A stretch of DNA of 64,000 nucleotides, from IMG/VR virus record IMGVR_UViG_2925891887_000001, one strand, 5' to 3'. The stretch's first letter is position 1. Every line of letters starts with the position of its first letter. Below the pieces are notes generated by a model. It was given only the letters and a program-made list of their open reading frames with translations. It did not search any database and was not told the origin of the DNA. A program made the position numbers and the translations under genes. Below are positions 4,745 to 39,210 of this stretch, one piece after another. Source of the stretch: a virus (taxonomy: Duplodnaviria; Heunggongvirae; Uroviricota; Caudoviricetes).

Positions 4745-4775
4745 TGTTTAAACAAATAAGATAACAACTTGTTTA
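4745..4775 (+). promoter_or_regulatory. AAACAA-N-TTGTTT operator cassette upstream of nrdB
   Basis: TTGTTTAAACAA palindrome (4745-4756) and TAACAACTTGTTTA (4762-4775). Leader ends AAGGAAAAACACATG, as at 15018, 15741 and 18195. Confidence 0.5.
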
Positions 4776-4804
4776 AACACATCAAAAAGCAAAAGGAAAA
4801 ACAC

Positions 4805-5947
4805 ATGTCATATTCAACGTTCCGTTTGGGTGCTAATGATGCAACCAAAGAGCCTATGTTCCTCGGACAATCTGTCAACGTGGCACGTTACGATCAGCAA
4901 AAATACCGTGATTTTGAAAAGTTGATTGAACGTCAATTGTCTTTCTTCTGGCGGCCGGAAGAAGTTGATATTTCGAGCGATCGTATCGACTTCAACACGA
5001 AGCTGCGGGACCACGAACGTCACATTTTTCTGAGCAATCTCCGTTATCAAACGTTACTCGATTCAGTTCAGGGACGTAGCCCAAATGCAACGCTGCTGCC
5101 GCTTATCTCTATTCCTGAACTGGAAACGTGGGTTGAAACATGGTCTTTCTCTGAGACTATCCATAGCCGCAGCTACACCCACATTATTCGTGGCATGGTG
5201 GACGATCCGAGCATTGTTTTTGACGGTATTGTTACGGATGAAGAAATCATCAACCGAGCGATCAGTATCTCTGCTGAATATGACAGGCTTTATGGGATGA
5301 CCTGCGAGCGCCAGTCGTTAGGTGAGAAAGAGTTTGAACGTCTGTACGTAAATGAATATGGCTGGGAGCCATACCCTTTGCATCGTCAGCTTTTCCGCAC
5401 GTTGGTGTCCATTAATGCGCTTGAGGCGATCCGTTTCTACGTAAGTTTTGCATGTACGTTTGCCTTTGGTGAACGGAAGTTGCTTGAGGGTAACACCAAA
5501 ATTATGCGCTTTATTGCCCGTGATGAAGCTCTGCATTGCGAAGGAACTGAACGCATGATCCGCTTCATGCGTACCGGTCGCGAAGGTTTATTGTGGAAAG
5601 AGATTGCTGCTGATGAAGAAAACGTCATTTACGACACCATGAAATCAGTCGCCGAACAAGAAATGAACTGGGCAGACTATCTCTTCAAAGACGGTTCGAT
5701 GATTGGTTTAAACGCGGATATTCTCAAAACCTATGTAAAATACCGCACCAATCTGGCTATGAATCGTCTTGGCCTGAAGGCTTTATTTCCAGAAGTTACC
5801 ACTGATCCGCTGGTCTGGATGAACAAGTGGTTGTTAACCGACACACTGCAAATTGCACCACAAGAGGCAGAGCAAAGCACATATCTGGTAGGTCAGATAG
5901 ATTCTACCGTGGATAAGGCTTCTCTAAGCCAGTTTGCAGACCTGTAA
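4805..5947 (+). CDS. nrdB: ribonucleoside-diphosphate reductase class Ia beta subunit
   Basis: From [34 protein letters not shown] the protein is collinear with E. coli NrdB as I recall it. RBS AAGGAAAAA precedes ATG 4805. The listed start at 4769 is probably too far upstream. Confidence 0.95.
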
Positions 5948-6024
5948 ACCGATACAAAGCATTATGTGGCCTGGCAACGCTGGGCCACAATGGATCACAA
6001 GAATTAAGAAGGAACAAAACTAGC

Positions 6025-6894
6025 ATGAACTTTACCAAACTGACTGACCACCTGAAACTTGCCACCGATCGACTCATTGGATTTAAGCCAGAACCATATG
6101 AGTTGCATGAAGGCCATGGTGTAGCCACTGAAAGTATTTACAAGATGGTCGATCAGTTTCATGAACTCTTCCAGCATCCGAGACGCGTTATGCCGACACC
6201 AGCGCTGCTTCGTCTCCGTGCAAGCCTGATTCATGAAGAAGCTGTAGTGGAAGGTATTCCAGCCGCAATGAATGGGGATATTGAGCAACTGCTGGATGCA
6301 ATGGCCGACTTTTTATACGTTGGTGTTGGTACGATGGTCGCCATCAAAGGTGGTATTTCTACCGGCATGACCTATTACACGCAGGAACAGAGCATTGATC
6401 GCTTTATGCAGACAATTTTTGTGCCTGGTAACACTGTTTTCGATGATATGGCAATGCCATTTCAGGAAGCTCGTGAGGCGTCATGTATGCTCGAAGAGCT
6501 GGCAGATAAACTTGAGAACAAGACTGTTAAGGATTCTGAGCTGATTCAGGAACTGCGCCGTGTAATGAACAAAATCTATGTGGCGTGCATGATGACCTAT
6601 CGACTGGCTGATTTCCTCGGTATCAATGTTGTCGAGCTGGTTGGCGAAATTCATCGGTCCAACATGACAAAATTATGGCCTGCAGATGCCGAAGAGCGTC
6701 GCCATGCTGTGGCCAACTGCAAATACGACTCTTCTGACCTGGGATTTCGCCATGCTGATGGCACCGATAAGATGATCGGTTTTCGAATTTCCGATGGAAA
6801 GATTCTGAAGTCTCCAACCTATAGTGATGTCGATTTATCCTCCTTTGTTGAGCAAGCTAAAGCCTCAGCAATGTACGGAATGATCAAAAAATAA
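6025..6894 (+). CDS. putative all-alpha NTP pyrophosphohydrolase (MazG/HisE-like)
   Basis: RLRASLIHEEAVVEGIPAAMNGDIEQLLDAMADFLYV matches the EExxE...D/ExxD metal-binding helix pattern of MazG-like enzymes. It sits in the nucleotide-metabolism cluster. Confidence 0.4.
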   Translation: MNFTKLTDHLKLATDRLIGFKPEPYELHEGHGVATESIYKMVDQFHELFQHPRRVMPTPALLRLRASLIHEEAVVEGIPAAMNGDIEQLLDAMADFLYVGVGTMVAIKGGISTGMTYYTQEQSIDRFMQTIFVPGNTVFDDMAMPFQEAREASCMLEELADKLENKTVKDSELIQELRRVMNKIYVACMMTYRLADFLGINVVELVGEIHRSNMTKLWPADAEERRHAVANCKYDSSDLGFRHADGTDKMIGFRISDGKILKSPTYSDVDLSSFVEQAKASAMYGMIKK

Positions 6895-6962
6895 TTGTAG
6901 GTAGTTATCTATCTGTGTATATTGCATTTGCGCGTTAAATTTCTGAAACAACTATTCGTTTT

Positions 6963-6988
6963 TGGTGGCCTATGGCCACCATTTTTTT
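6963..6988 (+). terminator. intrinsic terminator
   Basis: TGGTGGCC/GGCCACCA stem, 3-nt loop, T7 run. Confidence 0.8.
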
Positions 6989-7065
6989 ATCTATCTGGTC
7001 TTGTTCTCTCAATAAATGTAAACTCACACAATGAATAAGTGGTTACTTATCTTTGTGAGGTTTTT

Positions 7066-8169
7066 GTGTCACTCCTTTTGAATCGTGAGCATACGAACGG
7101 TCAGGTAACAAACGCATCGTATGCAAAAGTTATTGAGACGGTGCTTAAAAGCGGCGTGCAGGCTGATGATCGCACAGGCACTGGTACTTTAAGCACCTGC
7201 TACGTTCCCTCTTACTACATGCTTACTGGTGGGACTGTGCCGCTTATTTCTGGAAAGGCGGTAAATCTTAAGCCACTACTTGTCGAACTTGAGTGGTATC
7301 TGAAAGGCACGGGCAACATCCAATTTCTCAAGGATAACGGCGTTAAGATTTGGGATGCATGGGCCGATGAGAATGGCGATTTGGGGCCGGTTTACGGTAA
7401 GCAGTGGCGTCGATGGGAAGATACCCGCATCGTGAGCCATAGTGAATATCTGAGCAAGATCGATACTTTCCGTGAACGCGGGTACAAAGTCGAGGGATAC
7501 CTGGGTATCAGTGAAGATCGCGTAGTGCTGTCCCGTGAAATCGATCAGCTACAGCGTATTGTCGATACACTGCGCACGAATCCTACCGATCGTCGCATCA
7601 TGCTTAACGCATGGAACGTAGGCGAGCTTGAGGATATGAAACTGCCACCTTGCCACTTTGTCTTCTCTTTGTGGAGTCGTGAGCTTGATTTTGAAACCCG
7701 TTTAACGATGGCAACTGACATTGGTCTTCAACACAGTCGCCTCGGTTATGAGTCTATCTACACCAAGATGCTATACGATCTGGAGATGGACGGCAGTGTT
7801 ACTGAAACTGAACTGGATGAACTTGGAATCCCCAAACGCATCCTCAACTCCTGCCTCGTACAGCGTAGCGTAGACACTTTTGTTGGTATGCCATTCAATA
7901 TTGCTGGCTATGGCATTCTCACTCATTTTCTCGCGAAGATTACGGGTCACATGGCCGGTGCATTTGTGCATTTTGGCTTTGACGTGCATTTGTACAACAA
8001 CCACATGGAAGGTGTGTGTGAGCTAATGCAACGACAGGCTCCAGAGCATTCAGATCCGGTCGTTATATTCCCTAATGAATGGTCTGAGCTGGATGATTTC
8101 AAATGGGACGAGATTCTTATTCTTGGCTATGCCCCTCTACCGTGGATCAAGGTTCCAGTGGCGGTGTGA
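7066..8169 (+). CDS. thyA: thymidylate synthase (ThyA family) with two large insertions
   Basis: DRTGTGTLS, GPVYGKQWR, DRRIMLNAWNVGELEDMKLPPCH (catalytic Cys), QRSVDTFVGMPFNIAGY (Asn consistent with dUMP specificity). GTG 7066 follows a GAGG RBS. The listed start at 7039 lies inside an intergenic palindrome. Confidence 0.85.
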   Translation: MSLLLNREHTNGQVTNASYAKVIETVLKSGVQADDRTGTGTLSTCYVPSYYMLTGGTVPLISGKAVNLKPLLVELEWYLKGTGNIQFLKDNGVKIWDAWADENGDLGPVYGKQWRRWEDTRIVSHSEYLSKIDTFRERGYKVEGYLGISEDRVVLSREIDQLQRIVDTLRTNPTDRRIMLNAWNVGELEDMKLPPCHFVFSLWSRELDFETRLTMATDIGLQHSRLGYESIYTKMLYDLEMDGSVTETELDELGIPKRILNSCLVQRSVDTFVGMPFNIAGYGILTHFLAKITGHMAGAFVHFGFDVHLYNNHMEGVCELMQRQAPEHSDPVVIFPNEWSELDDFKWDEILILGYAPLPWIKVPVAV

Positions 8170-8170
8170 T

Positions 8171-8584
8171 ATGGCAAGAGGTATGTATGTCTTATGCGAA
8201 ATTGAAGGTGTGCTGGCAAATACCAGCCATCGTAAATCTGTATCTGACTCGGATGCAGGCCAATTCATTGCCGGTGATGAACTCATTTTCCCCACCAGCC
8301 GTATGTTGCGTGGTTTTGCTCGCTCAGGGGCTGAAGTGGTGCTTATCAGTAGCCGCTCTGAAACTCTTGAAGCGCCCACTAAACGATGGCTGAAAGATTT
8401 TGGTGTTGATTACGACTGGCTTCACCTCGTACCGAATAGCACTAGTTATGAGAAGCATATTAAGCGCACATTAGCGGAGCATAAAGGCGATCTGCTTATC
8501 GCTGCGCTGGTGCACGATCCTCGACTCCGTGCCGCTTTAGCTGACTCTCATCATAGACCGGTCATCTATGAGGTGAGCAAATGA
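8171..8584 (+). CDS. HAD-fold-like protein, possible nucleotidase (motif I degenerate)
   Basis: ATG 8171 directly follows the thyA stop. N-terminal VLCEIEGVLA resembles HAD motif I (DxDGVL) but has Glu in place of both Asp. Context is nucleotide metabolism. Confidence 0.3.
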   Translation: MARGMYVLCEIEGVLANTSHRKSVSDSDAGQFIAGDELIFPTSRMLRGFARSGAEVVLISSRSETLEAPTKRWLKDFGVDYDWLHLVPNSTSYEKHIKRTLAEHKGDLLIAALVHDPRLRAALADSHHRPVIYEVSK

Positions 8585-9057
8585 AGATGATAGCTGCTGT
8601 TGGCCGTAACTATGAGATCGGCATAGCGAACGAACTGCCCTGGCGTTGTTCTACCGATCTGAAGCTATTTAAGAGACTCACCAAAAACGCCACTGTCGTT
8701 ATGGGGCGTAAAACGATGGAAAGTCTCAAACGCCCTCTTCCAGAGCGTCATAACCTCGTTTTGACGCGCTCTCATGGCTTTGTACCAAATGGATTCTACC
8801 CTGCTGGTGTGGATGATGTGTTGCGATTACCAGAGCCAGTGTGGGTGATTGGCGGGGAACAAATTTACTCGCTATTCATGCCGCATGTTGAAGAGATTTG
8901 GCTCTCCCACATCGGCGTTGATGTGCCAAACGCCGATGCATTCTTCCCGGCAAGCATGATGCGTAATTTAGGCTTTGTGCCTGTTGAAACAGCTTATACC
9001 CAACGAGCCAGCGAGGAAGAGCCTGGCTTTTCGCAGATCGTATACAGAAGGTCGTAA
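8581..9057 (+). CDS. folA: dihydrofolate reductase
   Basis: MIAAVGRNYEIGIANELPW...DLKLFKRLT...VVMGRKTMESL...RPLPERHNLVLTR is the classic DHFR pattern. ATGA overlap with the upstream gene. Confidence 0.9.
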   Translation: MKMIAAVGRNYEIGIANELPWRCSTDLKLFKRLTKNATVVMGRKTMESLKRPLPERHNLVLTRSHGFVPNGFYPAGVDDVLRLPEPVWVIGGEQIYSLFMPHVEEIWLSHIGVDVPNADAFFPASMMRNLGFVPVETAYTQRASEEEPGFSQIVYRRS

Positions 9058-9701
9058 TGGATTACCGGATTGGGATCACTGGTGCTCAGGGCAGTGGGAA
9101 AACAACCCTGGCTAAATATATCGACAAACATTACGGAATCCCTTACGTGGATGCTGGTGTCGGAAGTTTGATGAGCCGCCTCGGTGTTCGAGTAGGTGAT
9201 TCTATGCCTCTATATGAGCGGCTTCAGATTCAAATGGAAATAGCAAAGCATATAGAGCTACTTACACGTGGTGTTGAAGGCTTTGTTATCGATCGCACAC
9301 CTGCTGATGTTATGGCCTACACGTTGGATTTGGTCGGCCATACCAATGAAGATCGGTGTATTGAGTTAGCCCTCGATATCGAAAAGTTTTGCCACAAAAC
9401 TGCTATTTCAAACTTTAACGCCATTGCTGGCTTACGCCCGGGAGTCGCTCTCTCAGAGCGAGATTACTTGCGATCACAACGAGCATCATTAGACCGTCTG
9501 TATGTCGCTCGTATTGATGCGTTGATGTGCGGGGAACTGACAAAAATTCACCTGCATCCGCAAAGGGGAGATCTGCAAACCTTCGTCGTTTCCAACCGGT
9601 ATCGCACAGTTGAAGCAAGAGCCAGATCAGTGATGAGAATGCTAGATAACGCTGTAGAAAAGATAGAAAACCGGTTCTGTGGCCGAGTGACCGTTCATTA
9701 G
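9057..9701 (+). CDS. P-loop NTPase, putative (deoxy)nucleotide kinase
   Basis: Walker A GITGAQGSGKTTLAKY at the N-terminus, about 214 aa. Overlaps the DHFR stop (TAATG). Sits in the nucleotide-metabolism cluster. Confidence 0.45.
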   Translation: MDYRIGITGAQGSGKTTLAKYIDKHYGIPYVDAGVGSLMSRLGVRVGDSMPLYERLQIQMEIAKHIELLTRGVEGFVIDRTPADVMAYTLDLVGHTNEDRCIELALDIEKFCHKTAISNFNAIAGLRPGVALSERDYLRSQRASLDRLYVARIDALMCGELTKIHLHPQRGDLQTFVVSNRYRTVEARARSVMRMLDNAVEKIENRFCGRVTVH

Positions 9702-9762
9702 AAATTGTTCGCCTCTTCGACATTGCGACAATAAAACTCTCAAAATGGGTTAAGGATAAAAA

Positions 9763-10182: not shown

Positions 10183-10191
10183 GGAGTTCTG

Positions 10192-10749: not shown

Positions 10750-10753
10750 AACA

Positions 10754-11889: not shown

Positions 11890-11900
11890 CGAGAAAGAAG

Positions 11901-12494: not shown

Positions 12495-12499
12495 TTTGT

Positions 12500-12596
12500 T
12501 CTGGTGTCTGTAATTAGCCTGCTTCTGTATATATAAATAACTACATATTAATTATTAATATACGGAAGAAGGCTGTTTTGTATCAGAGACTCCAGA
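12500..12596. repeat. large AT-rich imperfect palindrome, copy 1
   Basis: Outer arms TCTGGTGTCT/AGAGACTCCAGA. Inner arms AGCCTGCTTCTGTATATAT.../...ATATACGGAAGAAGGCT. The 23-nt core CCTGCTTCTGTATATATAAATAA is identical to 39079-39101. Confidence 0.85.
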
Positions 12597-14967: not shown

Positions 14968-14994
14968 TTATGTAATTAGAAAACAACTTGTTTT
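14968..14994 (+). promoter_or_regulatory. promoter/operator cassette
   Basis: TGTAAT -10-like hexamer, then AGAAAACAACTTGTTTT (perfect 15-nt palindrome 14980-14994). Leader AAAGGAAAACACATG. Confidence 0.5.
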
Positions 14995-15017
14995 GACAAA
15001 TAATAAAAGGAAAACAC

Positions 15018-15443
15018 ATGTTAGGTTTCTTCAAAAAGAAAACTCGTAAAGCTGTTATCGAAGTCAAAAAAATGGAGAACCGTGATGCGGTTGAGGCCAC
15101 CGTGTGGGGCGCGTACATGATCTCCTATGCCGACGGCACATGTGACGCAAAAGAAATTGCCATTCTTGAGAAGACAATTGCAGCTCTGCCTGCGTTTTCT
15201 CCGTTTGCTGGTGAAATTGCCCAAATGAGCGCCAATATCCGTGCTCGTTACGAAGCGTCCCCTCGTTCTGCTAATGCACAGGCTATTCGTGAGCTGTCTG
15301 ATATTGCGGGTACTCCAGAGGCGGTCGATGTTCTGTGTCTGTGCCTTGATATTGCCGATCAGGACGGCATTGGTGAACAAGAAGAGCAGGCACTGAAAAA
15401 GATCGCCCAGGCGCTTCAGTTGTCACTGGATGCTTATCTCTAA
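15018..15443 (+). CDS. TerB-like (tellurite-resistance TerB fold) protein
   Basis: Two ADG-x-D/E-xxE repeats (YADGTCDAKEIAILEK and ADQDGIGEQEEQALKKIA), typical of the TerB family. Confidence 0.55.
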   Translation: MLGFFKKKTRKAVIEVKKMENRDAVEATVWGAYMISYADGTCDAKEIAILEKTIAALPAFSPFAGEIAQMSANIRARYEASPRSANAQAIRELSDIAGTPEAVDVLCLCLDIADQDGIGEQEEQALKKIAQALQLSLDAYL

Positions 15444-15690: not shown

Positions 15691-15722
15691 CACAATAAAG
15701 CCAATAAGAAAACAACTTGTTT
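15691..15722 (+). promoter_or_regulatory. promoter/operator cassette
   Basis: CACAATAAAGCCAATAAGAAAACAACTTGTTTA. Leader TAGGAAAAACACATG. Confidence 0.5.
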
Positions 15723-15740
15723 AAGCATTAGGAAAAACAC

Positions 15741-16307
15741 ATGTGCAAGAAATGCAAAGCGATAGCTGATGAACAAAACGCCTTATTCGAAGAAATGGAT
15801 GCTAATGAACTGGTCAAAATGTTAGCCATTCTTCGAGGAATAGAAGACGTTTCCATATTTGAGAGAGTGGTTACAGCACTTAATTTTGAGTCCACCTTTG
15901 AAGAGCCAACTCAGGTTGTAGCTTTAGCACATCATTTCGGTGTTCATTATCTTGCTGAAAAAGAGAGAGCTGATAAGTTGCAAGCGACTTTGGATATGGT
16001 GAGCGAGACTCCAGGACCTCATGACGGTAACAAAAGTGAGACGATTATTGCCAGCAAAGATCGTGAAATTGCCGGGCTTAAATCCTCTCTAACGATGTTG
16101 ATGTCTGCAATTAACCTTATGTCTTCTAAAGCAGGTTATAAAATGCCATCACTAAACAGCGACGATCCGATGGCCGTTCGCCAGCTTTTAGGTGCAATGG
16201 CCGACCAGCTCGAAGACACAAAGAGTCGCCTTGAAGACATGATGCGGGAGCTCACGCATCGCCATGACTTGAATAAGCAGCCGCACAAAACGCAATACGC
16301 ACTCTAA
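15741..16307 (+). CDS. hypothetical coiled-coil protein (188 aa)
   Basis: ORF downstream of a cassette, followed by a terminator. Confidence 0.55.
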   Translation: MCKKCKAIADEQNALFEEMDANELVKMLAILRGIEDVSIFERVVTALNFESTFEEPTQVVALAHHFGVHYLAEKERADKLQATLDMVSETPGPHDGNKSETIIASKDREIAGLKSSLTMLMSAINLMSSKAGYKMPSLNSDDPMAVRQLLGAMADQLEDTKSRLEDMMRELTHRHDLNKQPHKTQYAL

Positions 16308-16401: not shown

Positions 16402-16436
16402 TGCGATAATTACACCAATCAGAAAACAAATTATTT
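16402..16436 (+). promoter_or_regulatory. promoter/operator cassette
   Basis: Extended -10 TGCGATAAT (16402-16410), then AGAAAACAAATTATTT (16421-16436). Confidence 0.55.
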
Positions 16437-16448
16437 AATGGTGTAATT

Positions 16449-19279: not shown

Positions 19280-19330
19280 ACGCTACAAATCCTTCGGCAT
19301 GAATAAATAAAGGCCATAAGTTGTGGCCTT

Positions 19331-19390
19331 AAATAAATTGTTTTCTACCTTTTCTTATTTGTGAAAATAACCACAACTAGAAAACAACGG
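19331..19390 (+). promoter_or_regulatory. promoter cassette with upstream and downstream operator elements
   Basis: AAATAAATTGTTTTCT (19331-19346), extended -10 TGTGAAAAT (19360-19368), TAGAAAACAACGG (19378-19390). Paralogous to 22953-23017 and 27992-28028. Confidence 0.55.
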
Positions 19391-22916: not shown

Positions 22917-22952
22917 ATATAGACACAATCCCTCCTGATTTACACAAGCCTT

Positions 22953-23017
22953 AAAACAATTTGTTTTCTACCTTTTGTTGATTGAGATAATAAGCCACAT
23001 AAGAAAACAAATTGTTT
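22953..23017 (+). promoter_or_regulatory. promoter cassette with two operator palindromes
   Basis: AAAACAATTTGTTTT (22953-22967, perfect), extended -10 TGAGATAAT (22983-22991), AAACAAATTGTTT (23005-23017). Confidence 0.6.
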
Positions 23018-23030
23018 CGGAGTGGTTGAA

Positions 23031-23330
23031 ATGTTGAACATTACCCAAGCCTACCAGGTGGCATTGATCAGTTCATCTCATACATCAGAGGAAGATGCTC
23101 GCCGATTCATGATCGCAAGCAATGAGCTGGATTGGGTTTCACAAATTGATGGCGGTTGTATTGTCCACGCCGGGTTACAGGATGATGTCTGGAAAGACGA
23201 CTTGCGTCGATATGGTATATCCGAAGGCGCGATTGCTAACATTCAGAAAGTACTTGATGTAGGCTTTGACTCTGTACATTTTGATTGTGGTGCGCCGATC
23301 GTTGAAGGGCTTGAGTGCTGGTGTTGGTAG
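23031..23330 (+). CDS. hypothetical protein (99 aa)
   Basis: ATG 23031 follows GGAGTGG. Confidence 0.5.
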   Translation: MLNITQAYQVALISSSHTSEEDARRFMIASNELDWVSQIDGGCIVHAGLQDDVWKDDLRRYGISEGAIANIQKVLDVGFDSVHFDCGAPIVEGLECWCW

Positions 23331-24820: not shown

Positions 24821-24850
24821 TTGTTTATACCAATAAGAAAACAACTAAAT
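24821..24850 (+). promoter_or_regulatory. promoter cassette (half operator)
   Basis: TTGTTTATACCAATAAGAAAACAACTAAAT. The AAAACAACTAAATAACA part recurs at 25069-25085. Confidence 0.4.
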
Positions 24851-24927: not shown

Positions 24928-25673
24928 CCGTAATTCTACGCAGCAGATAGCGCTACAGCGTCCAAATTTCACCACAGACGACTCAACACACTACCAACAA
25001 AAACACACGCTCAAAATCGCTCCCGTTGCGTTACACAACCATATAAACAACTTATTTTCAGGTATAACAAAACAACTAAATAACACACATGCCATTACCC
25101 AAAACAACCAACCTCTTTATGGCAGGCTACCGAAAAGACCCACCTCTTCTCCCCAGGCTACCGGACAACCAACCTAACTTTCACAGGCAATCCGAAAACA
25201 TTCATACGCGCGATACCCACGACACGCCATTACCCAAACAGCGAAGAAACACCAGAATCACTGAAAACCCAACGAAGCCTGTTACCGCAAGGATTCTCTC
25301 AATCCCAAAAGACACGAAACAGAACAATCACGGGAAACGCCATTACCCAATACACGAATAACTACAAAAGCCTTTCACACACTCCAGACAAACAACTCAA
25401 ACACAATAACGAAAGGAATCGCCCACCTGCCATTACTCCATACACGGAGAAGAACAATCACCAAAACGACGAGAACACCCCATAGAAGAACCACCGCAAA
25501 ACGAACGAAACCACATACACCGACAGAGAGAACAACACACCCAATTCACCAACAGAAATAGTCGCCGTATAGAACGTTCTGGAAGGAGTGAGCATTAACG
25601 CCTATAGAGAGGTTGAGACAGATAAAACACAACATGTATAGCGAAGAAGCCAGGTATGTATAAGTGGGGAGGG

Positions 25674-26204: not shown

Positions 26205-26240
26205 TGCGATAATAACACCAACAAGTAAACAACATGTTTA
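26205..26240 (+). promoter_or_regulatory. promoter/operator cassette
   Basis: Extended -10 TGCGATAAT (26205-26213), then TAAACAACATGTTTA (26226-26240). Confidence 0.55.
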
Positions 26241-26580: not shown

Positions 26581-26617
26581 TGGTATTGTTTACGCAATTT
26601 AGAAAACAACATGTTTA
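26581..26617 (+). promoter_or_regulatory. promoter/operator cassette
   Basis: TGGTATTGT, then AGAAAACAACATGTTTA. The 57-bp unit 26561-26617 is duplicated at 27045-27101. Confidence 0.55.
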
Positions 26618-27064: not shown

Positions 27065-27101
27065 TGGTATTATTTACGCCATTGAGAAAACAAGTTGTTT
27101 A
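27065..27101 (+). promoter_or_regulatory. promoter/operator cassette
   Basis: TGGTATTAT, then GAGAAAACAAGTTGTTTA. Confidence 0.55.
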
Positions 27102-27111: not shown

Positions 27112-27423
27112 ATGAAAAAATCATTGGTTCTTGGTCTGGACAAAGACCAGAAGAGAAAAGAGAAGCCTGCGCTGGTTGCTCAATTAACTTTGCTGGACAT
27201 CGTTGCCAATGGGACCTCTATTCGTCTGTTCCGTGAAACAGCGGTGTCTTTCGATAAAAACACCTTTACTCGTTATGTAATGAATGTTCGTCGCCAGCGT
27301 GGAAAAGGCTGGGTGGCATTTCAAAGAATGTGGCCGGAACATCAGCTCGAACTGGCTTTGATGGAAGTTAACCGCGTGGCCCAGCAAGAGATTCAGAGAG
27401 CATCAGTGATGGCAATAGCCTGA
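27112..27423 (+). CDS. hypothetical basic protein (103 aa)
   Basis: ATG 27112 follows ACGGAG. Confidence 0.5.
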   Translation: MKKSLVLGLDKDQKRKEKPALVAQLTLLDIVANGTSIRLFRETAVSFDKNTFTRYVMNVRRQRGKGWVAFQRMWPEHQLELALMEVNRVAQQEIQRASVMAIA

Positions 27424-27945: not shown

Positions 27946-27953
27946 TCCTCTTT

Positions 27954-27979
27954 AAATGGCGCGTAAACCGCGCCATTTT
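27954..27979 (+). terminator. intrinsic terminator
   Basis: AAATGGCGCG/CGCGCCATTT stem, 5-nt loop. Confidence 0.65.
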
Positions 27980-27991
27980 ATTAAGCCCGAT

Positions 27992-28028
27992 AACAATTTG
28001 TTTTCTGCCTTATCTGATTTGTGAAAAT
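27992..28028 (+). promoter_or_regulatory. promoter cassette with upstream operator
   Basis: AACAATTTGTTTT (27992-28004), then TGTGAAAAT (28020-28028). Confidence 0.5.
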
Positions 28029-28734: not shown

Positions 28735-28766
28735 GATAATTAACACCAACAAGAAAACAATTTGTT
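28735..28766 (+). promoter_or_regulatory. promoter/operator cassette
   Basis: GATAAT (28735-28740), with TTGACG at 28714-28719. Then AAAACAATTTGTT (28754-28766). Confidence 0.55.
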
Positions 28767-28787
28767 ATTTACGATAAGGAATTAATC

Positions 28788-29270
28788 ATGAATTTTATCG
28801 CTACTGTAAACGCACCCGCACATGGCAATATCGCTGTAACGTTCTCTGACATTGAAAAACGAGTACTTGGTGCATGGCGCGACAATGAGACGGTAGAACT
28901 GTCAGCACAAGAAAAATGCATTATTGCACGCGACATCATTGGCAATCGTCGTTACTCGCGGGTATTTGAGAAAGCGTATGTGGTAAATTCTGGATTCGGA
29001 ACGTTCGTCTTTCCGGTGCGCTCCGGGCGATTCTGCCAGTCCAAGCTGATTGAGTTCGCTACGCAGATTTCTTTCTGGATTAAAACTCAATCGTCGTTCA
29101 AATTTTCCGACGATGAAGCAGTATCGCAGGGGATGCGGATCGCCAACAATGCAATTAAATGCAAAAACATTACGTATACCGCTGGCGTTGATACATGGAA
29201 ACTGTTTTGCGCTAACTTTATGCTGAATGTATACGCAAGCAACCGCATCCACATCCTTGATGGCGTGTAA
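28788..29270 (+). CDS. hypothetical protein (160 aa)
   Basis: ORF after TAAGGAAT. Confidence 0.55.
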   Translation: MNFIATVNAPAHGNIAVTFSDIEKRVLGAWRDNETVELSAQEKCIIARDIIGNRRYSRVFEKAYVVNSGFGTFVFPVRSGRFCQSKLIEFATQISFWIKTQSSFKFSDDEAVSQGMRIANNAIKCKNITYTAGVDTWKLFCANFMLNVYASNRIHILDGV

Positions 29271-31326: not shown

Positions 31327-31851
31327 TTAAAATGGAAGGATTCGTTCAACCCAATCGAAGAAAACAAGTATTTTTCTGCCGTCTTCTAACTTAAGAGTGA
31401 CCTGGCAAGCATCAACGCCTCTTGACACCCCTTCTATTTCACGACCGTCTGTCATGTAGACCCTTATAGATTGGTCGTTTTGATAAGCCTTGCGACATAT
31501 CGCAAAAAAGTCACGGCGTGATGGCTGATTGTCAACATAGTCTGGATGTATTGTTAGCCTACCTTTGAACTCGCGAGCAATGTCATCGATTACACCTGAT
31601 TCAATTGTGCTAATGCGCTCAAGTGGGAGTCTTATACGATTTTCTTTATCATATGGAATCGGGCATAAATCTAGCTTATTGCGTGAAGGCATTGTCCCCT
31701 GAACGTACATGCAAAACACCTGACCGTCTTCAAGCGTGACTCTTACAGGAATGTTGTTCTTCCGCCAGAACATAAGTATGTTCTCAGCATGTTCGTAGTC
31801 TCGCGGCCAGACTTCAGCCGGTATGCCGTAGGTGATGTCCAATGTTCTCAT
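31327..31851 (-). CDS. hypothetical protein with an internal duplication (174 aa)
   Basis: Two copies of the pattern hRVxhxDGxxh...G (IPVRVTLEDGQVFCMYVQG and SIRVYMTDGREIEGVSRG). ATGA overlap with the upstream gene. Confidence 0.55.
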   Translation of the reverse strand: MRTLDITYGIPAEVWPRDYEHAENILMFWRKNNIPVRVTLEDGQVFCMYVQGTMPSRNKLDLCPIPYDKENRIRLPLERISTIESGVIDDIAREFKGRLTIHPDYVDNQPSRRDFFAICRKAYQNDQSIRVYMTDGREIEGVSRGVDACQVTLKLEDGRKILVFFDWVERILPF

Positions 31852-32447: not shown

Positions 32448-32462
32448 ATCATGATAATCCAA

Positions 32463-33663: not shown

Positions 33664-33728
33664 GATGTGCTCCTTTCTAACAAGTGAGCACATCATAGAA
33701 TTAGTAGATAGGGGGTAAATATGAAATG

Positions 33729-34007
33729 TTACGGCAACCTGCTCAGTATTTCCTCTAGATCTTTTTTTGTCATATTGGAGTTCTCATAGATGCGCATGAT
33801 TTTCTCACGCGTCTTAGCGGAAACCCCAACGGCAGATGTGACTTTGTCAAATTCAGCCATAGTCATCGTCTCCAGAATGGCATTGATAACTTCAGCCTTA
33901 GACATCTTGATTTTTTTCTCTTTGAGTTTTATTTGAAATTTTCCAAGTTTTTCATTGGCCTTATCAGACAATGCCACTTGGCAATAAGTTGTTTTCTTTT
34001 CGCTCAT
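33729..34007 (-). CDS. hypothetical protein (92 aa)
   Basis: Start lies 2 nt downstream of the helicase stop. Confidence 0.5.
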   Translation of the reverse strand: MSEKKTTYCQVALSDKANEKLGKFQIKLKEKKIKMSKAEVINAILETMTMAEFDKVTSAVGVSAKTREKIMRIYENSNMTKKDLEEILSRLP

Positions 34008-34009
34008 AA

Positions 34010-35569
34010 CTAATCTCGTTTCAGAACTCCAAAATCGAATGCGCCATCAACAGGCAATACACCTTCTGCAAAGCCAGGTGTGGTGTCGATGATGTGTTTT
34101 CGCTCATAAGAGTGAGACAACAGGTATTTGTTGCTAATGTCAATGAAATCAGTGATAAAACACACGTTTGCCTGATTCTTCTTGGCTCGTAAGCCACGAC
34201 CGACACGTTGTCTCATTTCAACTTCTGCTTTCCCACCACCAGCAAGAATGACCGCACCAACGCTTGGCACATCAACACCGACATCCAGAATAGTCGAGCC
34301 TATTAAAACATCTATGTCGCCAGACGCTAAACTGTTCAGCTTTGCTTGCCTTGTCGACTGGTTCGATTCCCCATAAATGAAGTCAACTCTAAGGCCGGAC
34401 TCTTTCATCATTTCCATCAGGATTTGCCCGTGGCGTTTAAGACGAACCAGAGTCATACAATTGAGAGAATGTTGCTTATAGAGCAATGCTTCGCGAACAA
34501 TGGCCTCATTACGTCCCAAATTATACACGATCCCCAACTGATAAGCCTTTTGGTAGGCAGTGCTCATACCTACTCTAAAATTGAGGTGTTTGTTGGCAAG
34601 TTCTGCCTTGATTCTGGCCTCGTCCGGCTTGTAGGCAACTTTATGATAAAGGAAGTATGGCTTTGCCAGAATGCCTCTATCAATCAGGTACTTTTCCGTG
34701 ACTTTTATTTCAATTCGCCCGGCCACTGCCATCAGACGCATGTTGGCTTCCGTAGAATCCTTCATGAACGGCGTTGCCGTAAGCGCCAGGCGATAGTCTG
34801 CGTTCGCACATAATCTGGCAATGTCATAGAAATTAGAGCCTGAAGACTCATGCGCCTCTTCCAGAATAAGAAGAGAGACACTTGAAAGGAAGCGTTTCAC
34901 CAAGTCCCGACGTTTGAGGTGGTAGCTCTTCTTATCTGGAGTTGCATCGCGTGGTGGTTCTTCAAGGAAACTTGCCAGAGTTTGAACTGTAGCGACGTTG
35001 ATATGTCGTGATACCTGGAACTCACCCGAGCCAATGACTCCAACCTTTTGGTCTTTTAACCACGGTTCGCCATTTTCGGCGCGGTAGTCGATGGATCTCT
35101 GGAAGTTTTCGGCCATCTGAAACATCAGAACAGAGCGGGTTGTTAAAAATAATGTCATTCGACCGATACGTGCAGCTGCTTTGCAGGCAACATTAGATTT
35201 CCCGCCACCAGTAGCGATCTGCGCAATCATCATTCCCTCTCGAACCAGTGTTTCCACAGTCTGATCCTGATATGCATAATCAGGATTGTATGGGAATGGG
35301 TTGACCGCCGGATTTGGCTTTCCAAGCGCCGGAGCTTTGTCTTTGCGGATATGAACACATTTGATGCCCGCCTTGTTCAAGTTCGCCGCTACAGGCTTGG
35401 CAAAGCCAGCAGGGAACGAGTTTTTACTCCAGTTGAACATCGTGCTTGTGCCCTTCCAGTCGCCAGTCTCGACTTCGTAGCTCAACATCTGTTGCACCAG
35501 TTGCTTTACCTTGTCATCTGCGCCAGAAATAAGTGCATTTACTGCGTTAGATACAATCCGAACAGTCAT
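34010..35569 (-). CDS. SF2 (DEAH-type) DNA helicase
   Basis: Motif I IATGGGKS, motif II LILEEAHE, motif III LTATP, motifs V-VI VGVDVPSVGAVILAGG...QRVGRGLR. Confidence 0.85.
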   Translation of the reverse strand: MTVRIVSNAVNALISGADDKVKQLVQQMLSYEVETGDWKGTSTMFNWSKNSFPAGFAKPVAANLNKAGIKCVHIRKDKAPALGKPNPAVNPFPYNPDYAYQDQTVETLVREGMMIAQIATGGGKSNVACKAAARIGRMTLFLTTRSVLMFQMAENFQRSIDYRAENGEPWLKDQKVGVIGSGEFQVSRHINVATVQTLASFLEEPPRDATPDKKSYHLKRRDLVKRFLSSVSLLILEEAHESSGSNFYDIARLCANADYRLALTATPFMKDSTEANMRLMAVAGRIEIKVTEKYLIDRGILAKPYFLYHKVAYKPDEARIKAELANKHLNFRVGMSTAYQKAYQLGIVYNLGRNEAIVREALLYKQHSLNCMTLVRLKRHGQILMEMMKESGLRVDFIYGESNQSTRQAKLNSLASGDIDVLIGSTILDVGVDVPSVGAVILAGGGKAEVEMRQRVGRGLRAKKNQANVCFITDFIDISNKYLLSHSYERKHIIDTTPGFAEGVLPVDGAFDFGVLKRD

Positions 35570-35633
35570 AAACCTCTTTCCTTAGTGCCTTTTGTATGTT
35601 ATTTGGCTATTATAATAAGTAAGTGATTACTTA

Positions 35634-36332
35634 ATGGATTGTAGCAATAAAATGGATGTAAAAATCACGATTTTGCAGGTTGATGTTGCCAACCTTCGCC
35701 CGAATACCTGGAACACCAATTCGGTTGGTGCGCAGAATTTCGAAAAACTGAAAGGTTCTATCGAAAAATTGGGCTTTTTTAAGCCAATTTTGGCTCGTGA
35801 ACTTGAAGATGGATTTTTTGAAATCCTCGGCGGCGAACATCGCTGGCGTGCCGCTATTGAGCAAGGAATTTCAACGGTTCCGGTGCTTTCTGTGGGCAAA
35901 ATTAGCGATGTCGTAGCTAAACAGATGTCACTGGTGGACAACGAGCGATACGGTGAAGACGACCAAATCGCATTGCAACGCTTCATTGAAGAAATTCAGT
36001 CAGAGCTTGACTATCAACTGTCTGAAATCGCCCCGTATGACGACGAAATCTCGATGGTTTTAGCAAAAGAGGCGGCAATCGACCTTGAAGCACTGGAGGC
36101 GTTGTCTCGTGGTAGTGATGAGCCTGTCGATACCGACAAACGAGAGAAAACCGAACGTGTGGGTGCGGAACATCAGACCATGCGCTTCAAAGTAACTTTC
36201 GATGCGTCAGATCGTGTTGCAGAAACCATAAAAAACATCATTAAAGAGCAGGCTATTAACACCGGTAATGAAATGGAGAACGCTGGTGAGGCTCTGGTGT
36301 GGCTGGTCGACTACTACAAGGAGCGTATGTAA
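35634..36332 (+). CDS. ParB/Srx-fold N-terminal domain protein 1
   Basis: LRPNTWNTN...FKPILARELEDGFFEILGGEHRWRAAIEQGISTVPV matches the ParB N-terminal domain GxxR box. Acidic C-terminus. Confidence 0.65.
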   Translation: MDCSNKMDVKITILQVDVANLRPNTWNTNSVGAQNFEKLKGSIEKLGFFKPILARELEDGFFEILGGEHRWRAAIEQGISTVPVLSVGKISDVVAKQMSLVDNERYGEDDQIALQRFIEEIQSELDYQLSEIAPYDDEISMVLAKEAAIDLEALEALSRGSDEPVDTDKREKTERVGAEHQTMRFKVTFDASDRVAETIKNIIKEQAINTGNEMENAGEALVWLVDYYKERM

Positions 36333-37000
36333 TGACCAAAAAGTTTGAAATCGTATATCGCGACCCGGCAGATCTTATTCCCTATGAGATGAATGCCAAA
36401 AAGCATGATGAACAGCAGATCCGAGATCTGGCCGCAGCCATTAAAAAGCGCGGATTTGACCAGCCAATTACGGTCGATAAGAACGACGTAATTATTACTG
36501 GCCACGGCCGCCGTGAGGCTGCAATTTTTGCTGGACTTGAGCGCGTACCGGTTATTGTTCGCGATGATCTCAGTGATGACGAGGTTCGTGCGAAGCGCCT
36601 TGAAGATAACCGACTTGCCAGCATTGATTACGATGCAATTAAGCTACAGAAAGAGCTTGAGTCGCTTGTTCTGGACGATATCGAGGTTTTCGGCTTTGAA
36701 GAGCGTGAGTTGAATGTTCTCGTTGGCAGTATGACAGAAGAAATGGACACCGACTCGCTAGTTATCGATCTTGGCGAAGAAACTAAACGACAGAAGGATG
36801 AACACACCGTGATCAGTCGTGAAGTTGCAGCGGAAGAAGTACGTGTTGTCGACGTATTGGGCTTTAAAACGCTCCCTGCTGGCTCTGCCATTGTTGTTGG
36901 TGATTTGCTTGCCCACATGGAAGAAATGACGGGAGAAAGCGGGGTAGACGCATTTGTGGCATATGCGGAGAAGATCTCTTCCGGGGAGATGGCTGCATGA
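36332..37000 (+). CDS. ParB/Srx-fold N-terminal domain protein 2
   Basis: LIPYEMNAKKH...FDQPITVDKNDVIITGHGRREAAIFAGLERVPVIV. TAATG overlap with the upstream gene. Confidence 0.65.
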   Translation: MTKKFEIVYRDPADLIPYEMNAKKHDEQQIRDLAAAIKKRGFDQPITVDKNDVIITGHGRREAAIFAGLERVPVIVRDDLSDDEVRAKRLEDNRLASIDYDAIKLQKELESLVLDDIEVFGFEERELNVLVGSMTEEMDTDSLVIDLGEETKRQKDEHTVISREVAAEEVRVVDVLGFKTLPAGSAIVVGDLLAHMEEMTGESGVDAFVAYAEKISSGEMAA

Positions 37001-37635
37001 GCAAATACATCATCAACGTATCGTTTCAGACACGCGTAAATAAAACCACGCGCACGTTGGAAATCGCTGAGTCGTTCGGGCTTGGCCTGGACGAAAAAGA
37101 GTGGACGCTTTACGACAATCTGGAGCTGGAAGTGAAGCAGGGCGATGTGGTGTACATTACCGGCCAATCCGGTTCCGGCAAATCCGTTGTGCTGCGCGAG
37201 CTGCAACACCAGATGAAGGATGAAGGGCTATCTGTGGCCTCCATCGATGATTTTACCTTCGATAATGAGGTTAACGTCATTGACCAACTGGGCAAAACTA
37301 CCAGTGATGCGCTTGGGTTGTTATCTATGGCTGGTCTGAACGATGCATATCTGTTTGTTCGCAAGCCTTCTGAAATGTCAGACGGTCAGAAATATCGTCT
37401 CAAGATTGCCAAACTGATTGAGTCAGGCGCTAAAGTGTGGGCTGCTGACGAGTTCGGCGCTGTTCTCGACCGTGTAACCGCTCAGGTTGTGGCATCTAAC
37501 CTCCAGCGTGCCGCTCGAAAGGTTGGTGCGACGGTAATGGTGGCGACGACTCACGAAGACCTGAAGAACGCGCTGCGCCCGGATATGCAGATCACCAAGC
37601 ACTACAAAGAACGCGTGAAGGTGGAATATGCCTGA
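36997..37635 (+). CDS. stand-alone ABC-type ATPase
   Basis: Walker A ITGQSGSGKSV, signature-like MSDGQKYRLKIA, Walker B VWAADEFGAVLD, H-loop ATTHE. ATGA overlap. Confidence 0.7.
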   Translation: MSKYIINVSFQTRVNKTTRTLEIAESFGLGLDEKEWTLYDNLELEVKQGDVVYITGQSGSGKSVVLRELQHQMKDEGLSVASIDDFTFDNEVNVIDQLGKTTSDALGLLSMAGLNDAYLFVRKPSEMSDGQKYRLKIAKLIESGAKVWAADEFGAVLDRVTAQVVASNLQRAARKVGATVMVATTHEDLKNALRPDMQITKHYKERVKVEYA

Positions 37636-37882
37636 TTTGAAGATCGTAGAGCTGAAGCCATCGAAAGAGACTGATAACAACAACGTGGAAGTCATCCGCC
37701 TGCTGGAAGAAGCACTTCAGCACGCCAGAGAAGGAAAAAGCCAGAGCCTGGCGCTGTTGATGATCAACAACGACGGCAGTGTTCTTGATTGCTGGCATAA
37801 CGGCGGGCGCCCGTATGTCATGGTAGGGGCGATGGAGTCTCTTCGCCTGGATTTCATCAATGCCAATATCGAGCGCAGGTGA
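37628..37882 (+). CDS. hypothetical protein (84 aa)
   Basis: Overlaps the upstream gene by 8 nt and the downstream gene by 4 nt. Confidence 0.5.
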   Translation: MPDLKIVELKPSKETDNNNVEVIRLLEEALQHAREGKSQSLALLMINNDGSVLDCWHNGGRPYVMVGAMESLRLDFINANIERR

Positions 37883-38778
37883 TCGAGATGGCAGATATCA
37901 TCATCAAACGCTACCGCCCTGAAGAGTTTCCGCGTCATCTGGACTTTCTGGAGCGAATGACTGTCACAAAGGGAACTGTAGAGGACTGGCACGCTCTTAA
38001 GTCGCTTCACTACAAAACAGACGGCAAACCTTTCGCGCCAACTTACTATCGCTGCGAACTTGATGACCGTCTGGTGGGCGTCGTGGTTATGGCTTACCCG
38101 AAACTACTGCTGGCACCTCGCCACCGCATGTTTCCTAAGTTGAAACCAACCACTAATACCACCGTGGCTAACCAGTACTGGGGTCGGTACGTGAATAACA
38201 ACTTTGCGGTGATCAGTCGCTCAGTTGTGGATACTCAGTATCGTGGCGTAGGCGTCTCTTATCGAATGATTAACCTGGTTAGCAGGATGCATGACCGGCC
38301 AATCATTGAGATCCAGTCCTCGATGAGCAAATACAATCCCTTCGCCATGAAAGCAGGGTTTAAGTTCATCCGCCCTGAGCGACCGAAGAGCTATGAAAGT
38401 GCACTGCGTGTATTCCAGCGCCATTTCCGTTCCGACCCGGGTGATAACGAGGCGATCGTCAAAGAGTTGTTCGCAATGAGCGAGTCTCGTCGTCGCCGTG
38501 CACTGCGTGATCTGGTGGCGGACTACCACAAGAACAGTTCCCTGGCAAAAGCTGGGCGGAATCGTGGCACGACGATTCAGGACATTGCCGACAGTCTGGT
38601 GGACGAGGCCAGCATTGTGAAGCTGCTCAAGGACATTCACAACCTGAGCTTTACGTCTCCGTTGTATGGTGTGTACCGAAACCCTGACTTTGGCCGTCGA
38701 CTGCCTGACACGCTGCCACTGCTGGCATTCGACAAACAACCTTTGGATAAACCGTTAGAAATTGCTTTACCGGCATAA
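37879..38778 (+). CDS. GNAT-fold acyltransferase-like protein with a C-terminal extension
   Basis: FAVISRSVVDTQYRGVGVSYRMINLV matches GNAT motif A (R/Q-x-x-G-x-G/A). SKYNPFAMKAGFKFI matches motif B. Confidence 0.55.
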   Translation: MIEMADIIIKRYRPEEFPRHLDFLERMTVTKGTVEDWHALKSLHYKTDGKPFAPTYYRCELDDRLVGVVVMAYPKLLLAPRHRMFPKLKPTTNTTVANQYWGRYVNNNFAVISRSVVDTQYRGVGVSYRMINLVSRMHDRPIIEIQSSMSKYNPFAMKAGFKFIRPERPKSYESALRVFQRHFRSDPGDNEAIVKELFAMSESRRRRALRDLVADYHKNSSLAKAGRNRGTTIQDIADSLVDEASIVKLLKDIHNLSFTSPLYGVYRNPDFGRRLPDTLPLLAFDKQPLDKPLEIALPA

Positions 38779-38787
38779 GGATTTGCC

Positions 38788-39054
38788 ATGACGTTAACCG
38801 ATAAACAAAAGGACATCATCAAAACGCTCAATCTCGGTTATGAGCGAGGTCATCTACTTGACCTGGACGAATTGCTTGAAGTTTTGCCGTACAAGACAAC
38901 CAAGCAAAGTATCCAGTTCTCAATTCGCGCTCTGATAAAAAAGGGGCTGGTGGAGAAAGGGCATACGCGCCAACGCAGTGACAATCGCTATCACCGCCGA
39001 ACTCTTGGGTTAACTACTTTAGGTCGAGCCAAAGCGAAGTTACTGGTGATGTAA
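38788..39054 (+). CDS. small winged-helix-like DNA-binding protein
   Basis: LDELLEVLPYKTTKQSIQFSIRALIKKGLVEK resembles a MarR/wHTH recognition helix followed by a wing. Confidence 0.4.
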   Translation: MTLTDKQKDIIKTLNLGYERGHLLDLDELLEVLPYKTTKQSIQFSIRALIKKGLVEKGHTRQRSDNRYHRRTLGLTTLGRAKAKLLVM

Positions 39055-39056
39055 TC

Positions 39057-39154
39057 GGTCTGGGAGCTTATTTAAAGACCTGCTTCTGTATATATAAATA
39101 ATAAGTAACTTATTAAATATATACGGAAGCAGGCTTCGTAAGACATGCCAGACC
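39057..39154. repeat. large AT-rich imperfect palindrome, copy 2
   Basis: Outer arms GGTCTGG (39057-39063) and CCAGACC (39148-39154). Inner arms CCTGCTTCTGTATATATAAATAATAAGT/ACTTATTAAATATATACGGAAGCAGG. Paralogue of 12500-12596. Confidence 0.85.
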
Positions 39155-39168
39155 TAATTAAACACCCC

Positions 39169-39210
39169 AGAAAACAAGTTGGTTAGCAGATGCAGTAAAC
39201 AAGTTGTTTT
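39169..39210 (+). promoter_or_regulatory. two tandem operator-type sites upstream of the packaging genes
   Basis: AGAAAACAAGTTGGTT (39169-39184) and TAAACAAGTTGTTTT (39196-39210). The hairpin AGAGCGC/GCGCTCT (39211-39230) follows. Confidence 0.5.

Follow-up and report, generated by a model that had tools for sequence, protein, structure and literature searches.

The window analysed here is a stretch of 64,000 nucleotides (nt) of the IMG/VR virus record IMGVR_UViG_2925891887_000001, and belongs to an Escherichia coli phage-plasmid of the SSU5/pHCM2/pMT1 type. It is SSU5/Cyrano-like, showing 96-99% identity to Cyrano/pLF82, to CMS-2020a and to numerous plasmids about 110 kb long. The window begins at approximately position 65,580 of Cyrano, and its position 39,117 is position 1 of both the Cyrano and the SSU5 records; the gene context was taken from the Cyrano annotation. 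A short palindrome, AAACAANTTGTTT, recurs through a region that comprises four blocks of genes: (i) the nucleotide-metabolism genes nrdAB, thyX and dfr; (ii) a block of small accessory genes between 14 and 30 kb; (iii) a leftward operon with uvsW, a gene for a 92-amino-acid (aa) protein and a homologue of FljA; and (iv) a rightward operon with two ParB-like genes, ATPases and an 88-aa protein, which continues into the terminase and structural genes (terS starts at 39,250).

Allowing one mismatch at most, AAACAANTTGTTT was found 15 times in the window, against an expectation of 0.42 +/- 0.70, a count that was reached in none of 100 shuffles; allowing two mismatches the number rose to 19, against 6.2 +/- 2.4 expected (0/100 shuffles). 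The oriented 9-mer AGAAAACAA/TTGTTTTCT occurred 16 times on the two strands, where 1.2 occurrences were expected. An earlier note on this DNA had described a dispersed motif with at least 13 copies and had asked whether an AT-rich background could account for it; both the number of copies and the reality of the excess are borne out by these counts. The aligned consensus is AG-(A/T)AAACAA-N-TTGTTT-(A/T), a dyad of 13-15 bp, usually with the AG on the promoter side. The AAACAA arm is invariant in all twelve aligned sites and the second arm almost so. A crude gene model, which recognises ATG starts only, assigns about 86% of the window to coding sequence and leaves 13 of the 15 full sites wholly non-coding. 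The remaining two, centred at 26233 and 26610, have nine and six coding bases beneath the 13-mer in this model, which look like artefacts (a spurious minus-strand open reading frame, and an ATG inside the motif). The centres of sites of the 5'-untranslated-region type lie approximately 18-41 nt ahead of the next ATG, and those of the two sites in front of terS 47 and 72 nt.

The copies are given here in window order and are on the plus strand unless stated otherwise. The first (AGATAACAACTTGTTTA, 4759-4775) is located in the nrdA-nrdB intergenic region, its centre 37 nt ahead of position 4805, where the nrdB reading frame has its first ATG, and has an orthologous copy in Cyrano and SSU5. A perfect copy (AGAAAACAACTTGTTTT, 14978-14994) precedes by 31 nt the ATG of a 141-aa TciA/TerB-like gene, with a TTGACC-17-TTATGT promoter ahead of it, and is followed by AGAAAACAACTTGTTTA (15707-15723, 25 nt before the ATG at 15741) and by AGAAAACAAATTATTTA (16421-16437, 19 nt before the ATG of a DUF4942 gene). 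For this last cassette, centred at 16430, the sequence can be read as containing an extended -10 element, TGCGATAAT, at 16402-16410 on the plus strand, with equivalents at 22983-22991, 26205-26213, 26582-26590 and 27066-27074. Two pairs follow. In the first, an upstream-type copy with AGAAAACAATTTATTTA on the minus strand (19328-19346) comes right after a terminator-like hairpin, approximately 31 nt upstream of the end of the -10, and its partner, 51 bp away, is a half-site AGAAAACAA (19379-19387) with the Shine-Dalgarno (SD) sequence GGAG immediately after it. In the second, a perfect upstream-type copy (AAAACAATTTGTTTT, 22951-22969, AG flank on the minus strand) stands 51 bp from AGAAAACAAATTGTTTC (23002-23018), 20 nt before the ATG at 23031. 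At 24836-24844 there is only a half-site AGAAAACAA, after which come TATAAACAACTTATTTTCA (25042-25060, 38 nt before the ATG at 25089), AGTAAACAACATGTTTA (26224-26240, behind a TGCGATAAT element), AGAAAACAACATGTTTA (26601-26617, abutting the SD sequence AAGGA) and AGAAAACAAGTTGTTTA (27085-27101, 18 nt before the ATG at 27112). A third upstream-type copy on the minus strand (27988-28006), again after a terminator-like hairpin, belongs to a cassette without a downstream palindrome, and AGAAAACAATTTGTTAT (28752-28768) lies 27 nt before the ATG at 28788. Finally, the terS leader holds site 1 (AGAAAACAAGTTGGTTA, 39169-39185) and, 25 bp further, site 2 (AGTAAACAAGTTGTTTT, 39194-39210). Every coordinate in the earlier note thus holds a copy, although at 19378-19390 and 24835-24850 the copy is only a half-site, AGAAAACAA, and lacks the TTGTTT arm.

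The copies stand at a constant distance from a promoter-like element. A T located 20 nt upstream of the palindrome centre is invariant in 12 of 12 aligned sites, and in most cassettes it can be taken for the 3' end of a -10 hexamer (GATAAT, TATTAT or GAAAAT). By-eye reading of the sequences placed TGn in front of such a hexamer in about seven to eight cassettes, roughly half of them, and at two sites at least (4768 and 14987) the -10 called by eye sits a few nt differently. The cassettes were not picked up by a two-hexamer sigma-70 scan of the window because they lack a -35. If transcription starts at the usual 7 nt past the -10, the palindrome would cover approximately +6 to +20, with its centre at +13/+14. 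The three upstream copies, centred at 19337, 22960 and 27997, are inverted, so that upstream and downstream copies alike turn their AG flank towards the -10; in the double cassettes the two copies are 51 bp apart from centre to centre, and the upstream one is centred at approximately -38. A spacing of 51 bp is about five helical turns and would place both sites on the same face of the helix, which is compatible with looping, though no more than compatible. As for the second palindromes previously claimed for three cassettes, the upstream copies do exist, but the one at 27992-28004 has no downstream partner, and the separation is 51 bp and not about 45 bp.

Some cassettes share more than the motif. 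Of the window's three upstream copies, two come directly after a terminator-like hairpin, as do two copies in SSU5. Hairpin, inverted copy and -10 travel as a unit in front of small accessory genes (window 19310-19346 and 27946-28006; SSU5 85580-85617 and 87603-87640), and one decayed unit of this kind is found in SSU5 between convergent genes. In this respect the promoter cassettes look like mobile "moron" modules. The common leader that had been noticed before was recovered as GGAAAA(A)CACATG, SD and start codon included, in front of three unrelated genes (sites 4768, 14987 and 15716). In its longer form, (A)GGAAAA(A)CACATG, this leader spans 4790-4811, 15003-15020 and 15727-15743, and it is also found in one Klebsiella cassette.

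The same 13-mer was found across the Cyrano genome, where it is located, outside the window, at the promoters of parA, the replicative helicase, cobT and CYRAN_58, and in Salmonella phage SSU5, at orthologous places and at further ones. In Klebsiella, pCRKP18622-1 carries 21 sites with at most one mismatch, of which 16 are perfect, and LR890700.1 carries 20, of which 11 are perfect. Proteins of both Klebsiella lineages are 30-75% identical to those of Cyrano and the motif is unchanged; it occupies orthologous as well as non-orthologous promoters across the Cyrano, SSU5 and Klebsiella lineages, in agreement with the idea that the copies form one motif family under selection. The site pair of the terS leader was also kept in Yersinia pestis and Kluyvera contigs. 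In the syntenic Pectobacterium plasmid Drgb1 (terL 80%) the motif is absent, with one match at up to one mismatch and none that is perfect, and a Xenorhabdus relative has no site in the available 20 kb, terS leader included. Two AGAAAACAA half-sites in Pectobacterium follow -10-like elements, the second arm being absent. A scan of IMG/VR with the exact pattern was uninformative, as the multi-copy loci were SSU5-like contigs and the single matches elsewhere look like chance.

Forty-three distinct terS leaders from IMG/VR were aligned. Both sites are kept in them and the 9-nt spacer between the sites varies freely. Some IMG/VR leaders have exactly one site, sites 1 and 2 having been fused by the loss of a precise 25-bp unit; because the lost unit is exact, the pair behaves as a tandem repeat of site plus spacer. 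The two sites can pair with each other as RNA (z = -2.3). Between site 2 and the SD of terS lies a hairpin on the plus strand, AGAGCGC-ATGGAC-GCGCTCT (39211-39230), identified from the fold and the leader alignment, whose pairing, as read from the alignment, is kept across lineages by compensatory changes in the stem. This hairpin may not be a simple terminator, since the T-run that follows it is lost in one Klebsiella lineage.

Since the sites lie in transcribed sequence, in many cases right against the SD, a role of the motif in RNA had to be weighed against a role in DNA. In the window, SSU5 and Klebsiella 53 departures from dyad symmetry were counted, every one of them one-sided: 43 break the pairing, 10 give G-U pairs and none is compensatory. 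Four leaders folded no better than shuffled sequence (z ~0), and Rfam gave no match at the gathering threshold over the whole window. An RNA hairpin and a known RNA family were rejected on these grounds, and the combination of one-sided deviations and unfolded leaders argues for recognition of half-sites on double-stranded DNA. The copies at -38 are inverted and lie outside the leader, and for this reason too the site was read as DNA. The strict mirror symmetry, C and G positions included, points to a dimeric DNA-binding protein, of which it is expected, and has no rationale for a single-strand RNA binder. The dimeric DNA-binding reader that had been postulated is supported by the dyad and by its uncompensated deviations.

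An indirect test was provided by published RNA-seq data with per-gene values for strain LF82, a lysogen of the near-identical element Cyrano (PMC9928086). The first genes behind motif sites showed approximately 5-25 normalised reads, with a prophage median of 9.8 (PMC9928086): terS 7.1, helicase 21, cobT 7.8, CYRAN_58 5.7, nrdB 12.9, CYRAN_85 7.0, CYRAN_87 7.1, CYRAN_101 7.5, CYRAN_105 12.8, CYRAN_106 12.2, CYRAN_110 6.7 and CYRAN_111 25.5. The exception to this silence is parA, with 50 normalised reads (PMC9928086). Promoters that look strong on paper are thus off in the lysogen, which fits repression without proving which factor is responsible.

Taken together, we consider it probable, if by no means certain, that AAACAA-N-TTGTTT is a dispersed operator in double-stranded DNA that would be read by one element-encoded repressor, probably a dimer. 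The operator is most likely common to about 15 promoters in the window and to 20-25 in the whole element, and the regulon would comprise nrdB, the helicase, parA with its partition operon, cobT, the block of small accessory genes and the leader of the terminase/late operon. In the mechanism that we propose, a small dimer encoded by the element would bind at approximately +13 and, in some cassettes, also at approximately -38, where it would occlude or trap RNA polymerase at extended -10 promoters that lack a -35; with both positions filled, the distance of 51 bp, about five turns, would permit cooperative binding. If the reader is itself encoded behind its own operator, a negative-feedback loop would result, by which replication, nucleotide-metabolism, partition and accessory genes may be held low in the plasmid state.

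Several observations weigh against a repressor of this kind. The site stands in a transcribed leader beside the SD, which leaves room for a role at the RNA level, and its AG flank renders it asymmetric. Two sites in the leader of the late operon are odd for a repressor of early genes, and one upstream-type copy of SSU5 is found between convergent genes. The case draws on sequence and published expression, and the candidate proteins are tied to the motif by phyletic pattern and conservation. The protein that we consider the best candidate is barely expressed in the Cyrano lysogen (6.4 normalised reads), gave no significant family, profile or PDB structure match, and shares its phyletic pattern with four more genes.

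This protein is the homologue of CYRAN_37 (71 aa), encoded outside the window, which may be the reader of the motif; it is a tentative lead, although the best one available. Its gene belongs to the helicase-primase-ligase operon, and the motif is present at the promoter of that operon, so that with CYRAN_37 as reader a negative-feedback loop would follow. CYRAN_37 and the motif co-occur in four lineages and both are absent from Pectobacterium Drgb1; CYRAN_35, 59, 61 and 62 are the other four genes that, like CYRAN_37, are found in all four motif-bearing lineages and are undetectable in Pectobacterium. At only 48% overall identity the stretch (K/R)PKTRA(K/R)LER is kept, which can be read as the recognition helix of a protein that would be winged-helix-like. 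The earlier note had identified no regulator in the window. Three nucleic-acid-binding candidates are in fact encoded there, each of which is disfavoured by comparison between lineages, and the best lead does lie outside.

It is unlikely that the motif is instead bound by another DNA-binding protein of the element, for which there are three candidates: an 88-aa MarR-like protein, a ParG/omega-like protein acting as a global silencer in the manner of omega of pSM19035, and the 92-aa protein. The first (38788-39054, plus strand; CYRAN_123 in Cyrano) is encoded 115 bp upstream of the terS double site and is the best-conserved small protein, with 78% identity to its Klebsiella orthologue. Its AlphaFold2 model (predicted local distance difference test score 79.5) is a MarR-like winged-helix fold for which Foldseek returned MepR, MarR and APE_0880a, and the family is confined to these elements. 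Its candidacy is undermined by relatives that keep the helix and not the motif: the recognition helix TTKQS(I/M)QFSIRALI is unchanged in Pectobacterium Drgb1 and in the Xenorhabdus relative, of which 20 kb, terS leader included, were seen to be siteless. In addition, lysogen expression of the gene is close to the floor. More probably, the 88-aa protein reads something that all lineages have in common. In the lysogen RNA-seq its gene reached log2 values of 4.2-6.6 and its upstream operon neighbours 2.7-4.2, mostly about 3; because its reads exceed those of these neighbours, the gene may have a weak promoter of its own.

The ParG/omega-like protein is encoded in the partition operon, outside the window, where a short Walker ParA is followed by a small basic-tailed protein that we read as ribbon-helix-helix, an order and pattern that fit type Ib. 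In favour of this protein as the reader, the promoter of its operon carries the motif at the standard cassette position and it is expressed in the lysogen (89 normalised reads). All lineages retain a segment, (K/R)SRTxSxE(D/E)E, that we read as the beta strand of this protein; this includes Pectobacterium Drgb1, which has a near-identical strand yet lacks the motif. No type Ib repeat array was seen upstream of parA in the sequences read, only a single copy of the dyad. The 92-aa protein (33729-34007, minus strand) appears ribbon-helix-helix-like by eye and is strongly expressed in the lysogen, with 114 normalised reads. It is disfavoured as the reader since the residues inferred to face the DNA vary among lineages that have the same motif. 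The ribbon-helix-helix assignments of the ParG-like and the 92-aa proteins were both made by eye, Pfam giving no match for either.

The homologue of FljA (31327-31851, minus strand) raises an RNA-level explanation, in which the motif would be read as single-stranded RNA, an A-rich half followed by a U-rich half, and the ribosome would be blocked and the mRNA destabilised in about 20 leaders, in the manner of Salmonella FljA on its fliC target. The protein matches the FljA family over its full length (Pfam PF03614, 3e-80), and its AlphaFold2 model consists of two Sm units of one helix and five strands each, for which the top PDB matches in Foldseek were all Hfq. A-rich and U-rich halves resemble the ligands of the faces of Hfq. 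The motif centres lie at the short distances from start codons given above, several abutting the SD, and growing cells of the Cyrano lysogen express the homologue (log2 7-8). Salmonella FljA has been reported to act post-transcriptionally on fliC mRNA (PMC2652032). The Hfq-like model agrees with such an action. Were this explanation true, it would add a post-transcriptional layer of prophage maintenance, by which lytic and accessory genes are silenced. We nevertheless regard it as improbable. An exact dyad with mirrored C and G, and inverted copies outside the leader, are not accounted for by a single-strand binder; identity of the FljA-like protein falls to 34% and 26% in the two Klebsiella lineages with an unchanged motif; and the target mRNAs are not just untranslated but down at background level. 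The resemblance of CAAGTTG, in the fliC leader of Salmonella, to the motif is not significant, as the best position weight matrix match of 2.5 bits was reached by 530 of 5000 shuffles, and the E. coli fliC leader is without a match. The FljA homologue is found in 834 PLSDB plasmids, including those of the Y. pestis pMT1 type, and evolves fast (26-99% identity); its target could be the fliC of the host or mRNAs of the phage.

A DNA-binding protein of the enterobacterial host would explain why, despite the divergence of all element proteins, the motif is invariant in elements from E. coli, Salmonella, Klebsiella and Yersinia, and why it is absent from Pectobacterium elements and from the 20 kb seen of Xenorhabdus. 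The motif loosely resembles the core of integration host factor (IHF) sites, WATCAANNNNTTR. It is, however, more specific and more symmetric than IHF needs, with an A where IHF sites have a conserved T, and we know of no E. coli regulator with such a site. In 305 kb of mostly Salmonella-like chromosomal sequence around fliC only one match with at most one mismatch was found, compared to 15 in the 64 kb of the window, and a host factor appears very unlikely. Least credible of all is that no trans-acting factor is involved and that the copies are recent paralogous duplicates of a cassette, or that AGAAAACAA is favourable at the start of the transcript or in the leader: a number of cassettes are evident paralogues (spacer TTTTCT(A/G)CCTT...TG(T/A)GA(A/T)AAT) and the Pectobacterium half-sites lack the second arm, but the full palindrome also occurs in non-homologous contexts (4768, 14987 and the terS leader), flanks and spacer vary in the terS leaders while the sites are constant, and both arms are conserved across lineages.

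If the AAACAANTTGTTT sites are indeed operators of an element-encoded repressor, they are probably not the only set of this kind. A second dispersed palindrome of about 20 bp, (A/G)TAG-GTAAGTGNTTAC-CTAT, was found at window positions 7035, 14087, 18138 (minus strand) and 35619, at Cyrano 42607 and ten more places, in 15 copies in SSU5 and in 17 in Klebsiella pCRKP18622-1. The copy at 35,619 is located at the divergent promoter between the uvsW and the parB-like operons, and another one is in the control region of the integrase-linked helix-turn-helix (HTH) repressor. This "putative repressor", CYRAN_45, was discarded as the reader of AAACAANTTGTTT, because its own intergenic region is without that motif and carries GTAAGTGCTTAC instead. 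Its recognition helix co-varies with the second palindrome, with NANN in E. coli and Klebsiella and SHNN in Pectobacterium; CYRAN_45 is absent from SSU5, which is not decisive since SSU5 may be a repressor-less derivative. The GTAAGTGNTTAC palindrome is probably the operator set of the primary HTH repressor, and the two together would then constitute the primary switch. In Drgb1, TAGGTATGTA-NN-TACATACCTA was considered as a replacement of the AAACAANTTGTTT operator and rejected, as it corresponds to the second palindrome. The same plasmid, without AAACAANTTGTTT, has an annotated hfq gene (48354-48575) just upstream of the replicative helicase, and colicin-like genes.

The silencing or immunity circuit suggested in the earlier note can be revised in this light: the genes behind the motif are silent in the Cyrano lysogen, as silencing would have it, but immunity is a doubtful role for AAACAANTTGTTT, because this motif is constant between lineages and it is the GTAAGTGNTTAC palindrome that tracks the HTH repressor beside the integrase. 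The circuit may have two tiers, in which the integrase-linked HTH repressor, through GTAAGTGNTTAC, would set immunity, and a tiny autoregulated protein of the replication operon would hold the AAACAANTTGTTT promoters as a negative-feedback "thermostat".

A third repeated element is a large AT-rich palindrome, GCCTGCTTC(T/C)G-TATATATAAATAA...TATATAC-GGAAG(C/A)AGGC, of which the window has two copies (39078-39135 and 12517-12573), each followed by a paralogous CCAGACCT... leader. It contains a T4-late-promoter-like octamer, TATAAATA, and the SSU5 and Cyrano records begin inside the copy at 39.1 kb. Pectobacterium has at least three copies of a related TATAAATA(C/T)TATGGGAGCNCGG element. It is possible that this palindrome serves as a late promoter, or that the 88-aa winged-helix protein binds it.

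The four variants of the 13-mer did not occur among 8 million searchable papers, and no account of this motif, or of the control of lysogeny and gene timing, was found in the papers on SSU5-like elements that were consulted. A circuit with a shared operator is ordinary in kind and unsurprising in principle, and will be useful to researchers of phage-plasmids; we found no earlier description of one in this widespread family. Phage-plasmids of the SSU5/pHCM2/pMT1 type occur commonly in E. coli, Klebsiella, Salmonella and Enterobacter, and the marker genes that we used were present in about 800 PLSDB plasmids. The family includes pHCM2 of Salmonella Typhi and pMT1 of Y. pestis, and some members bear resistance genes. 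A defined operator with approximately 20-25 mapped copies offers a handle for fishing out the regulator, and its map indicates which genes would be co-regulated (nrdB, helicase, parA, cobT, the small accessory genes and the late operon). The cassettes themselves would be compact, repressible extended -10 promoters, and the motif and the second palindrome together give the outline of a circuit in two layers.

The architecture resembles the C1 regulon of phage P1, the KorA/KorB system and the omega regulon, although neither by sequence nor by a demonstrated protein is it a member of any of these. In the plasmid prophage P1 a single repressor, C1, acts on many scattered operators that overlap the promoters of lytic and accessory operons, with a specificity that is conserved between P1 and P7. 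Repeated operators at many promoters of a plasmid prophage would be shared with the present element, but those of P1 are asymmetric 17-mers, ATTGCTCTAATAAATTT, read by a monomer, and the dyad of 13-15 bp is unrelated to them (a homologue of C1 was not searched for). KorA and KorB of RK2/RP4 act at palindromes of 12-13 bp at many promoters, with class I KorB sites near -39/-40, and link partition to regulation. The positions at approximately -38 and +13, and the copy at the parA promoter, are reminiscent of this arrangement; the sequence differs, and the ParB-like genes of the element (35634-37000) are at the expression floor in the lysogen. The small basic-tailed protein, read as ribbon-helix-helix, behind a short ParA, and the motif in the promoter of their operon, recall omega/ParG of type Ib; however, omega of pSM19035 reads arrays of 7-bp heptads and here there is a single dyad, and the ParG-like strand is kept in a relative without the motif. 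Like Salmonella FljA and fliC, the window combines a full-length FljA homologue with a motif in leaders near the SD, but the fliC leader has no significant match and both the dyad and the -38 copies point to DNA. As in lac O1, finally, the operator centre would lie just past the start (+11 in lac O1, approximately +13/+14 from the start inferred here) with an auxiliary operator nearby, which differs from that of lac in its distance of only 51 bp and its overlap with the -35 region.

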